Below are positions 54,874 through 56,979 of a DNA stretch of 64,000 nucleotides, piece after piece; position 1 is the stretch's first letter, and every line of letters starts with the position of its first letter. The DNA comes from Blastocatellales bacterium (lineage in GTDB: Bacteria; Acidobacteriota; Blastocatellia; RBC074): assembly GCA_050249535.1 (NCBI GenBank), contig JBFWQI010000001.1, positions 149,541-213,540 of the forward strand, in the 5' to 3' direction. The notes beneath the pieces are model-generated. The model ran no database searches, was not told the origin of the DNA, and worked only from the letters and a program-made list of their open reading frames with translations. Both the position numbers and the translations under genes were made by a program.

Positions 54874-56979
54874 ATGGCCAGGACGGGAAATACGGTTTAC
54901 GGTGAAATTGAGATCGGATTGCAGCGCATACAACCCGAGGCTTATACAGTTGATCTGCGCGTTACCGACCCGGAGACTCAGGGAGAGATAGCGCCCTCAC
55001 TGGGACAGGCTCCGATTTCGCTCGACGAATTGCTGTCTCTGCAACAGGATCCCGCTCAATACGGCGAGGTCCTGACCAGCCGGCTGTTTGAAAGCGAAGA
55101 GATCCGGAAACTGTACAGCAATACAAGGGCGGCATTTGACAGCCGGGGGCTGAAGACGCGGATCCGCCTGCTGATCGGGCAGAGCGTTCCGGAACTGCAC
55201 GGTCTGCGATGGGAGCTCCTGCTCGACCCTGAGAAAAAGACGCGGCTGACGACTTCCGAGCAGATTCTCTTTTCGAGGTTCATGCTGAGCAGGGACTGGC
55301 GGGTGATTCGCTTGAGGCCGAAACGGGAGATGAAGGCCCTGATTGCGGTCTCGGCGCCGGGCGATCTGGCACAGTTCGGTCTGGCCGAAGTTGACAGGGA
55401 CGGCGAGATTACACGGGCTCGCGAGGCGCTGGCCGGAATCGAAGCGGATGTCGTCGGTCACGACAAGCCGCTGACGCTCCAGAATCTGGTCGGTGCGATG
55501 CGTGACGGAGTCGATATACTCTATCTTGTCTGTCACGGCGCAATGCCGAAAGGCAAAGAGCCATGCCTGTTCCTTCAGAGCGATGATGGCAAGACCTCAA
55601 GGGTAATGGCGGGAGATCTGGCGACGCGAATCAATGAATTGTCGGAATCGCCGCGCCTGATCGTCCTTGCCTCCTGCGAGAGCGCGGGTGACGGAGACGG
55701 GACTCCGGCTGCCCAGGCTGCGCTGGCCCCTCGCCTCGCGGAAGCCGGCGTGCCGGCCGTCATAGCCATGCAGGGCAAGATCAGCATGGAGACGGTCAAG
55801 CAGGCGATGCCCGTCTTCTTCAGTGAGCTGCTCAAGGACGGGCAGATCGACAGGGCTCTGGCTGTCGCGCGCGGAACCGTCCGGGATCGACCCGACAGCT
55901 GGATGCCCGTTCTCTTTCTGAGGCTCAAAAACGGCCGTATCTGGTATGAGCCGGGATTTGCCGGCGAGGGATCTGAAGAGTTCAGAAAATGGGAATCGAT
56001 CTGCACCCGCGTCAAAAAGGGAGAATTCATTCCAATCGTCGGCACCGATCTCGCTGAAGATGTTCTTGGCGGGTCGCGTGAGCTGGCCAACCGTCTGGCG
56101 GAAGAGCACGCCTTCCCGCTGGCCGGTGAAAACCGGGCAGACCTCGCGAAGGTCATGCAGTTCATCGCGACGCATCAGGATCGTAATTACGCTCAGGATG
56201 CGATCAGGGACCAGTTCCAGTTGCAGTTGACGATGCATGTCGGCAGCAAAGACGCCTCGGGCAAGAATCTCGGCGCTCTGCTCGATCTCGCGCTGGAAAA
56301 ATGCATGGCCAATGAAGATCACCCGTACACGATCCTCTCGCGCCTCAATGCATCGATCTACCTCAATGCCAGCCCGGACACGCTGCTCTTCAAATCGCTG
56401 ACCGCTGCTGGCAAGAAACCGGAGGCCGTCTTCGGCGACTGGCGCAGAACCGGCGATAAGGTGCCCAAGGAGCCGGAACCGGAAAATGTCAACCCGAGGC
56501 CGGAAGCGCCCTGGGTCTATCAGATCTTCGGTGTCCTCGGTAAACGCGAAACACTCGTTATCACCGAAGATGATTTTCTCGATTACCTGATTGCGACCTC
56601 TACCGATAAGCTCATGCCCAAGAAGGTGCGAGGCTCGCTGCTTCAGAATTCGCTTCTCTTTCTCGGTTTCAGAGTCGATGACATGAGGTTCAGGGTGCTC
56701 TTCCGAATGATAATGACCATGCAGGGAACTGAGACGCTGCGGGATTTATCGCATGTCGGCGTCCAGATCAACCCTGATGAGAGCAGCTTTGAAGATGTCG
56801 AGAGGGCCAGAAAATACATCGAAAGCTATTTTCAGGAAGGCAAGGGAGGTGCGCCGTCGATCTCGATATACTGGGGCACCGCCGCCGATTTTCTCAGGGA
56901 GCTGCGCAAGCGCCTGTCGGAAATGAAATCTGAAGATGCCGGTACGGTTGCACAGGACGATAACGATGACTGGCTCTGA
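54874..56979 (+). CDS. Fusion protein (701 aa): an N-terminal CHAT caspase-like protease domain and a C-terminal SIR2-like (ThsA/SIR2_2-type) domain.
   Basis: The CHAT catalytic dyad is ILYLVCHGA (His221) and LIVLASCESAG (Cys268). Four SIR2_2 motifs are present in order: FIPIVGTDLAE, YLNASPDTLLFKSL (matching N-x-x-D-x-L), VYQIFGVLGKRETLVITEDDFLDYL (matching VY..G.......VI..DD[FY]) and LLFLGFRVDDMRFRVLF (matching LF.GF...D.....L). They line up with Bacillus ThsA as I recall it. Confidence 0.8.
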   Translation: MARTGNTVYGEIEIGLQRIQPEAYTVDLRVTDPETQGEIAPSLGQAPISLDELLSLQQDPAQYGEVLTSRLFESEEIRKLYSNTRAAFDSRGLKTRIRLLIGQSVPELHGLRWELLLDPEKKTRLTTSEQILFSRFMLSRDWRVIRLRPKREMKALIAVSAPGDLAQFGLAEVDRDGEITRAREALAGIEADVVGHDKPLTLQNLVGAMRDGVDILYLVCHGAMPKGKEPCLFLQSDDGKTSRVMAGDLATRINELSESPRLIVLASCESAGDGDGTPAAQAALAPRLAEAGVPAVIAMQGKISMETVKQAMPVFFSELLKDGQIDRALAVARGTVRDRPDSWMPVLFLRLKNGRIWYEPGFAGEGSEEFRKWESICTRVKKGEFIPIVGTDLAEDVLGGSRELANRLAEEHAFPLAGENRADLAKVMQFIATHQDRNYAQDAIRDQFQLQLTMHVGSKDASGKNLGALLDLALEKCMANEDHPYTILSRLNASIYLNASPDTLLFKSLTAAGKKPEAVFGDWRRTGDKVPKEPEPENVNPRPEAPWVYQIFGVLGKRETLVITEDDFLDYLIATSTDKLMPKKVRGSLLQNSLLFLGFRVDDMRFRVLFRMIMTMQGTETLRDLSHVGVQINPDESSFEDVERARKYIESYFQEGKGGAPSISIYWGTAADFLRELRKRLSEMKSEDAGTVAQDDNDDWL

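Follow-up and report, generated by a model that had tools for sequence, protein, structure and literature searches.

Architecture of a CHAT–SIR2_2 fusion protein

The gene examined here lies on the forward strand of a 64,000-nucleotide stretch of DNA from a Blastocatellales bacterium (contig JBFWQI010000001.1; hereafter the window, to which all coordinates refer) and encodes a 701-residue protein in which a caspase-like CHAT protease domain is joined by a short linker to a C-terminal domain of the SIR2_2 fold. The CHAT half keeps its catalytic dyad and the SIR2 half, as judged from alignments, appears to be a pseudoenzyme, for which reason we call the two parts CHAT and pseudo-SIR2. The gene comprises these features:

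54874 to 56979, + strand: CHAT–pseudo-SIR2 gene, ATG start, 701 aa (open reading frame and translation; Pfam CHAT and SIR2_2)
55114 to 55923, + strand: CHAT domain (clan CD, caspase-like), residues 81-350 (Pfam, Foldseek)
55534 to 55536 and 55675 to 55677, + strand: CHAT catalytic codons of His221 and Cys268, respectively (codons checked)
55924 to 55971, + strand: inter-domain linker LKNGRIWYEPGFAGEG, residues 351-366 (conservation and model confidence)
55972 to 56928, + strand: pseudo-SIR2 domain (SIR2_2 fold), residues 367-685 (Pfam, profile alignment, Foldseek, alignment with intact relatives, family statistics)
56041 to 56058, + strand: degenerate Gly loop GTDLAE, within pseudo-SIR2
56365 to 56379, + strand: NASPD, with Ser500 in place of the catalytic Asn, within pseudo-SIR2
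56527 to 56532, + strand: FG, with Phe552 in place of the catalytic His, within pseudo-SIR2
56665 to 56673, + strand: GFR motif, within pseudo-SIR2

A Shine-Dalgarno-like GAAGGGA precedes the open reading frame and the preceding gene is 30 nt away. An identical protein has been deposited from a Blastocatellales (Acidobacteriota) metagenome-assembled genome, and homologues fall into more than 1654 database clusters, the top 120 of which are nearly all about 700 aa long and carry both domains. Because of this identical deposit and these homologues of the same architecture, the fusion is real and intact and belongs to a large family, rather than arising by chance or through an assembly artefact.

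Both domains are recognized by Pfam far above the curated cut-offs: CHAT (PF12770) over residues 81-340 (E 3.5e-26, 92.8 bits against a cut-off of 24) and SIR2_2 (PF13289) over residues 502-652 (E 2.7e-14, 53.9 bits against 24.5). An AlphaFold2 model built from a 35-sequence alignment (mean predicted local distance difference test score, pLDDT, 78) was searched against the PDB with Foldseek. The N-terminal half matched the CHAT proteases Csx29 and SAVED-CHAT (E 4e-8 to 4e-7), and the C-terminal half matched best the SIR2 domains of ThsA, KomC and DSR2 (E 1e-11 to 1e-7), led by SeThsA (7UXT, E 2.6e-11) and including BcThsA, KomC/HAM-SIR2 and DSR2, with target template-modelling scores up to 0.68-0.70 (0.68 for KomC/HAM-SIR2). 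None of the Pfam, NCBIfam, PADLOC or Foldseek matches assigned the C-terminal domain to DUF4020, macro or another fold. The initial annotation, a description drawn from the DNA letters, had proposed a ThsA-like SIR2_2 domain, rather than DUF4020 or a macro-like fold, fused to a CHAT protease with an intact His-Cys dyad, and on each of these points the profile and structure searches bear it out.

The dyad consists of His221, in the motif VCHGA, and Cys268, in LASCESAG. Both residues are invariant, in 120 of 120 close homologues and in all 66 homologues from genome loci, and in the model His221-Gly222 follows the strand formed by residues 215-219 and Cys268 follows the strand at 262-266. Because the His/Cys dyad is kept, CHAT is the sole credible catalytic activity of this protein, which we predict to be a protease.

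Loss of the catalytic residues in the SIR2-fold domain

The C-terminal domain had also been described as reproducing, in order, the four diagnostic motifs of SIR2_2 domains, and on that basis as a hydrolase of nicotinamide adenine dinucleotide (NAD+). The four motif positions are indeed present and in order; the diagnostic residue, however, is replaced in every one. We established motif equivalence from profile and multiple alignments (phmmer, and a family-alignment profile against PDB sequences). Where the reference NADases read YWTTNYD and VVYKMHGD (BcThsA), VYKLHGD (SeThsA) or TTNYD and VIKFHGT (KomC), the window protein has IYLNASPD and VYQIFGV in the same columns. The profile-to-PDB alignment places Phe552 opposite H152 of ThsA, H146 of KomC and H171 of DSR2, and Ser500 opposite N112 of ThsA. 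Deposited mutant chains mark these columns as catalytic (TTAYD, that is N112A, in 8BTO; TTAYD and KFAG in 9V12; H146N in KomC; H171A in DSR2), and the invariant flanking Gly553 anchors the alignment beside Phe552. Compared with the intact standalone relatives described below, the Gly loop GAGxS (GAGAS in those relatives) has become G390-T-D-L-A, and in alignment A2 TTNYD has become N498-A-S500-P-D, HLHG or HFHG has become QIFG (F552-G553), and GYS, of the G(Y/F)S motif, has become G598-F-R600.

The absence of the His extends across the family. The residue at this position is Phe in 114, Leu in three and Tyr in three of the 120 closest clusters; Phe in 64, Tyr in one and Cys in one of 66 genome loci at 33-82% identity; and Phe in 125, Tyr in 13 and Leu in 12 of 150 representatives of 50%-identity clusters, so that a His occupies the catalytic position in none of the roughly 330 family members examined (120 + 66 + 150). 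The Asn of TTNYD is retained in five of the 120 close homologues and in 58 of the 150 cluster representatives, GxG is retained in 86 of those 150, and many Chloroflexota-type members read GPG...TTNxD. The acidobacterial clade to which the window protein belongs has GP(D/E) or GTD together with NAS and has thus lost the Asn as well as the loop's second Gly.

Two residues were considered as displaced catalytic groups and rejected. A His that had migrated to position 550 is discounted because HxHG already occurs in the intact relatives and is thus ancestral; the residue is 58% conserved, and the window protein has Gln550. Asn498 is not a shifted catalytic Asn, since its column corresponds to the first Thr of TTNYD and holds only N or T.

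The equivalent substitutions in ThsA, N112A and H152A, abolish NAD+ cleavage and also cause loss of NAD+ binding (Ka et al., PMC7272460). By analogy with these precedents we predict no NAD+ hydrolysis by the SIR2 domain of the window protein, which appears to be a pseudoenzyme without the residues needed for NAD+ breakdown. The reading in the initial annotation, that the domain is an active NAD+ hydrolase and the protein a dual protease/NADase effector duplicating the protease-TIR logic of its neighbour, has in its favour the genuine SIR2_2 homology and fold, the fact that defence-associated SIR2_2 domains are usually NADases, and the apparent catalytic competence of the standalone relatives paired with nSTAND1. 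Set against these are the replacements at all four motifs (Phe552 for His, Ser500 for Asn, GTDLA for GAGxS and GFR for GYS), the want of the His in every member examined, the ancestral status of the His two residues upstream (Gln550 here), and the ThsA mutants just cited, and we consider this reading very improbable. Tested against what defines a defence SIR2 NADase, the protein fails at the catalytic His, at the Asn, and at the Gly loop together with G(Y/F)S; because three defining catalytic features fail, it should not be filed under that heading. Annotation pipelines and readers can nevertheless be expected to label it a SIR2 NADase–protease, and the evidence that its sirtuin domain is a pseudoenzyme extends to the whole family of ~700-aa CHAT–SIR2_2 proteins, with over 1600 clusters from Acidobacteriota, Chloroflexota, Myxococcota and other phyla.

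Genomic association with nSTAND1 NTPases

We collected related loci, four by exact protein look-up and 80 from GTDB species genomes, from Acidobacteriota, Chloroflexota, Myxococcota, Planctomycetota, Verrucomicrobiota, Actinomycetota, Gemmatimonadota and Proteobacteria; 65 hold a full-length CHAT–pseudo-SIR2 gene. Downstream neighbours were counted in the 62 loci with at least 1.5 kb of downstream sequence. In 54 of these 62 the gene immediately downstream encodes an nSTAND1 NTPase; the database search for such fusions and their neighbours that had been suggested earlier yields both a large family and a recurrent partner. Of the 55 pairs whose spacing could be measured, 47 are separated by no more than 50 nt, mostly with the genes overlapping, and overlaps of 4 to 20 nt recur in relatives. 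With few exceptions, translation of CHAT–pseudo-SIR2 is coupled to that of an nSTAND1-WD40 NTPase anchored in the membrane. A homologue of the C25-like peptidase encoded next to the gene in the window lies within 10 kb in 29 of the 65 loci, and one locus (L085) holds the three genes in a single operon in an order differing from that of the window. Because of these frequencies (54/62 against 29/65), we regard nSTAND1 as the conserved partner and the C25-like peptidase as a frequent third component.

In the window itself the gene is third in a co-directional block of four, flanked by housekeeping genes (for pentose-phosphate enzymes at one end and for a copper ATPase and FixG at the opposite end). 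Its companions are:

48647 to 52150, + strand: nSTAND1 paralogue a, with NTPase, transmembrane helix (50063-50116) and WD40 beta-propeller (Pfam nSTAND1 E 7.6e-39, and WD40)
52174 to 54843, + strand: C25-like clan-CD peptidase with TIR_2, 889 aa (Pfam, sequence, TIR Glu alignment)
56966 to 59014, + strand: nSTAND1 paralogue b, with P-loop NTPase, transmembrane helix (58379-58450), coiled coil and small C-terminal domain (Pfam E 2.9e-35)

We take the start of paralogue b as 56966, the mechanical list of open reading frames having 56936; this likely start overlaps the stop of CHAT–pseudo-SIR2 by 14 nt (56966-56979, ATGACTGGCTCTGA). The conserved C-terminal tail DDW(L/F) of CHAT–pseudo-SIR2 may be partly constrained by this overlap. 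The NTPase modules of the two paralogues are 55% identical and both carry SPSGAGKSS and DQFEE.

A single strongly hydrophobic helix at about residues 455-555 is present in both nSTAND1 proteins of the window and in 48 of 50 related partners, where it lies between the NTPase and the WD40 or other C-terminal domain (related loci L002-L079). Lys and Arg residues are commoner on the NTPase side of the helix (5.2 against 2.8; 42 of 50 proteins). Because of this enrichment the sequences suggest an N-in/C-out topology, in which nSTAND1 would be a transmembrane STAND receptor with its WD40 sensor outside the cytoplasm. Four loci (L018, L033, L059 and L066) have CHAT–pseudo-SIR2/nSTAND1 pairs duplicated in tandem or runs of two to three consecutive nSTAND1 genes, an arrangement consistent with sensor diversification. 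No full-length CHAT–pseudo-SIR2 was matched on phages or plasmids in tblastn searches that took in plasmid and chromid records.

The same tblastn of plasmid and chromid records returned two matches spanning only the pseudo-SIR2 part (E 1e-16 and 1e-12), and both proved to be standalone SIR2_2 proteins, of 324 aa in Nonomuraea gerenzanensis and 318 aa on plasmid pB of Ensifer adhaerens. The Nonomuraea gene (NZ_LT559118) is directly upstream of, and overlaps by 19 nt, an nSTAND1 gene with TPR repeats; the Ensifer gene (NZ_CP098809) is directly upstream of an nSTAND1 gene whose product bears a transmembrane helix and a propeller. This standalone family of ~300-aa proteins comprises at least 2246 clusters, and among 121 aligned members the His is present in 121 of 121, the Asn in 120 of 121 and GAG in 110 of 111. 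Three further members, chosen at random, each closely precede an nSTAND1-TPR gene, which two of them overlap by 4 nt, bringing the association to five of five contexts (L087, 5911-8834; L088, 5908-10886; L089-L091). We found no PADLOC model for the standalone SIR2_2–nSTAND1 pair and no paper describing it in the searchable literature. Two related SIR2 lineages thus share the nSTAND1 partnership: a free-standing one that is intact and a CHAT-fused one that universally lacks the His.

These standalone modules, exemplified by those of Nonomuraea, Ensifer and Kribbella (CP107954), carry a homologous SIR2_2 in the same place upstream of nSTAND1, often overlapping it. They differ from the window system in having no CHAT domain and in keeping all NAD-binding and catalytic motifs intact (GAGAS, TTNYD, HxHG, GYS). 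In actinobacteria their partners mostly bear TPR sensors and lack a propeller, whereas the Ensifer partner shares the transmembrane helix and beta-propeller with the partners described above. There are also His-less representatives of about 360-370 aa that consist of pseudo-SIR2 without CHAT (P0129, P0133, P0140, P0182, P0226, P0232 and P0249), which may be split genes, fragments or standalone pseudo-SIR2 proteins.

Directly upstream of CHAT–pseudo-SIR2 in the window, the C25-like peptidase has a His266/Cys326 dyad and a TIR_2 domain at residues 678-791 with the catalytic Glu748, the TIR forming an insert that separates the peptidase from a conserved small domain at the C-terminus (..TY(V/T)....DG..(V/L)P....LW.IH..). 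The initial annotation was therefore right to see a protease-NADase-type fusion in this neighbour, and we found no homology between it and CHAT–pseudo-SIR2. The C25-like family comprises at least 6869 clusters, and most of its members are 470-700 aa long with either no added domain or the small conserved C-terminal domain; among the top 120, about 13 carry TIR_2, one Glyco_hydro_19 and one a cupin. To judge from these domain combinations, the C25-like neighbour, and not CHAT–pseudo-SIR2, is the component that bears swappable effectors. The TIR linked to it is the only plausible NADase of the locus, one predicted NADase and not two, and its C25-TIR gene is found in under half of the loci; the redundant or two-tier NADase design put forward earlier finds no support in this count.

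Role of the pseudo-SIR2 domain

Taken together, these data lead us to favour, with moderate confidence, the explanation that the gene encodes the protease arm of a conflict system resembling nucleotide-binding leucine-rich-repeat receptors (NLR-like) and built on a STAND NTPase, and that its SIR2 domain has turned into a pseudoenzyme coupling CHAT to nSTAND1. The ancestral module would have consisted of an nSTAND1 sensor and a SIR2 NADase effector; we infer that SIR2 was the ancestral nSTAND1-coupled effector because intact standalone SIR2 proteins sit likewise upstream of nSTAND1. A CHAT protease would then have been fused N-terminal to SIR2, with proteolysis taking over from NAD+ depletion as the output, and the SIR2 domain would have been retained as a pseudoenzyme because the protein is still coupled to the NTPase through it, the domain docking onto or co-assembling with the activated nSTAND1 oligomer. 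On the pattern of other STAND and caspase systems, assembly on the oligomer may cluster and activate the CHAT domains, much as caspases are activated by induced proximity. Activated CHAT would cleave downstream targets, and a speculative candidate is the co-encoded C25-like peptidase, which would make a two-protease cascade.

Judged by its conservation, the pseudo-SIR2 domain is kept under purifying selection. Mean identity over this domain is 55% to close and 40% to distant homologues, compared with 66% and 53% for CHAT, and its invariant polar positions include Q429, E565-D566-D567, R607, Q631 and W667-G668. The most conserved stretch of the protein is the linker, at 82% and 65%, with the consensus RLKxGRIWY(E/V)PGF and low model confidence (pLDDT ~45-55); it may mark a site of docking or of cleavage.

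Several points weigh against the explanation we favour. It is the linker and not pseudo-SIR2 that is best conserved, so docking could run through the linker. The C25-like gene is absent in over half of the loci, and a cascade through it cannot therefore be the general mechanism. Forty-eight of the 150 distant members keep both GxG and TTNxD, which fits retained nucleotide binding better than a role confined to structure. Finally, a His-less SIR2 might conceivably act by a non-canonical catalytic mechanism.

The conserved linker suggests a different reading, in which pseudo-SIR2 is an inhibitory pro-domain or a substrate and CHAT cuts within the linker (RLKxGR|IWYxPGF), freeing either the protease in active form or a SIR2-like fragment with a toxic or scaffolding function. 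The linker is not only the most conserved segment but also carries basic residues and is predicted to be flexible, and defence modules linked to proteases commonly free their effectors by proteolysis (10.1101/2025.11.14.688446). The same stretch could equally be a docking motif, or an inter-domain strand that packs in the native protein and was left unplaced by AlphaFold2, and standalone His-less pseudo-SIR2 proteins exist. We consider this reading distinctly unlikely, although less so than an active NADase.

Of the alternatives to coupling, a ligand receptor deserves the most weight, while still being unlikely in our estimation. Pseudo-SIR2 would here bind NAD+, ADP-ribose or a TIR-made nucleotide without cleaving it and gate CHAT allosterically, with SAVED-CHAT and the caspase-like protease of type IV Thoeris as possible analogues. 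Domains with the SIR2 fold bind dinucleotides. The distant members that keep GPG and TTNxD (the 58 with Asn and 86 with GxG counted above) point in this direction, as do Gln631 and Trp667-Gly668, which lie at the C-terminal ends of strands beta5 and beta6 and are invariant in 66 of 66, the intact TIR encoded by a neighbouring gene both in the window and in several relatives, and the presence of ligand-triggered filament formers (ThsA, KomC) among the closest structural matches. On the other hand, the clade of the window protein has lost both the Gly loop and the Asn, the N112A mutant of ThsA no longer binds NAD+ (PMC7272460), most loci are without a TIR gene, and acquisition of a TIR brings no distinct motif change in pseudo-SIR2.

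Returning to the coupling explanation, its fullest version would be a three-part immune or cell-death pathway, in which a single-pass membrane STAND protein with a periplasmic WD40 sensor signals inward by assembling on pseudo-SIR2, a former NADase effector now acting as adaptor or receptor, assembly switches on an initiator CHAT, and CHAT in turn processes an executioner C25-like protease with swappable effectors (TIR, chitinase-like and others). We offer this pathway tentatively and think it improbable as a whole; if true, it would be a bacterial outside-in, apoptosome-like caspase cascade, widespread and uncharacterised.

Comparison with known systems places the protein among several of them and inside none. 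Thoeris ThsA (PDB 6LHX, 7UXT, 8BTO) is the best sequence and structure match of the C-terminal domain, with a SIR2_2 fold lacking a Zn module, and the PADLOC ThsA matches are confined to the SIR2 part of the window protein (E 4e-9). Unlike ThsA, the window protein has no SLOG or Macro sensor, has Ser and Phe at the equivalents of Asn112 and His152, and carries an N-terminal protease, and its partner is a STAND NTPase rather than a signalling TIR of the ThsB type. Membership in Thoeris was thus rejected: neither SLOG nor Macro turned up in Pfam and PADLOC scans, the TIR shares a polypeptide with a C25-like peptidase, and the arrangement is not that of ThsB.

The SAVED-CHAT pathway includes a second caspase-like protease. 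With SAVED-CHAT (PDB 8TL0) and Csx29/Craspase (PDB 8EEY, 8D9H) the window protein shares a CHAT His/Cys protease of clan CD and a non-catalytic regulatory module under the control of an upstream sensor. Here, by contrast, the module is a C-terminal degenerate SIR2 and not an N-terminal SAVED or TPR domain, the sensor is a membrane STAND NTPase, and there is no CRISPR or cyclic-oligoadenylate context.

Avs proteins (e.g. the SIR2-STAND protein Avs5) and the Apaf-1/caspase-9 apoptosome likewise combine a repeat-sensor STAND NTPase with an effector of SIR2 or caspase fold, presumably activated by oligomerisation, and WD40 serves as the STAND sensor both in Apaf-1 and in the window system. In the latter, however, effector and STAND are separate polypeptides, the effector carries no recognisable effector-associated domain (EAD), CARD or Death adaptor, the SIR2 is predicted to be inactive, and the STAND protein is an nSTAND1 with a transmembrane helix and a WD40 domain probably outside the cytoplasm. 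The effector is not fused to the STAND N-terminus, as it is in Avs, and PADLOC returned no Avs match. Conflict systems centred on nSTAND1 (Pfam PF20703) have been described with EAD or Death-like adaptors (Kaur et al. 2021, PMC8195603). Genomic linkage to nSTAND1 is present, nSTAND1 genes lying on both sides of CHAT–pseudo-SIR2 with P-loop and Walker B intact; a shared EAD or Death-like adaptor is absent from the window, where neither nSTAND1 protein has such a Pfam match and the nSTAND1 domain begins at residues 14 and 27. For the constant domain EACC1 (Kaur 2020) was considered and rejected, since EACC1 is a short transmembrane domain.

PADLOC 2.0.0 and NCBIfam contain no model for CHAT–pseudo-SIR2 or for nSTAND1, and we found no specific description of a CHAT–SIR2 fusion, or of an inactive SIR2 in STAND systems, in the available literature. 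An NLR-like STAND system with a caspase-like effector is of a known kind; what would be new is an effector turned into an adaptor pseudoenzyme. The pair of lineages, SIR2 intact when standalone and degenerate when fused to CHAT, amounts to a natural experiment in how an immune effector becomes an adaptor once a new enzymatic output is fused to it. The apparently undescribed system also combines a sensor probably outside the cytoplasm with two different caspase-fold proteases, and it is relevant to the recruitment of effectors in trans by STAND receptors that have no adaptors of the Death or CARD type.

Some features of the wider neighbourhood remain to be recorded. Directly upstream of the block, on the same strand (40395-48613), are genes for a 1416-aa SpaA_2 (prealbumin-fold repeat) protein and a 1312-aa CarboxypepD_reg/outer membrane protein (OMP) beta-barrel protein. 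We considered both as parts of the system and rejected them, since beyond the two closest relatives (L001 and L005) they are not conserved; this neighbourhood is probably unrelated to it. Repetitive, hypervariable WD40 DNA was likewise considered and rejected, no tandem repeats having been found. Paralogue b has no WD40; after its transmembrane helix and coiled coil, at 58800-59011, lies a region with a faint Pfam match to the prokaryotic YEATS domain (pYEATS, E 0.0082), whose 16.4 bits fall below the cut-off of 26.9.

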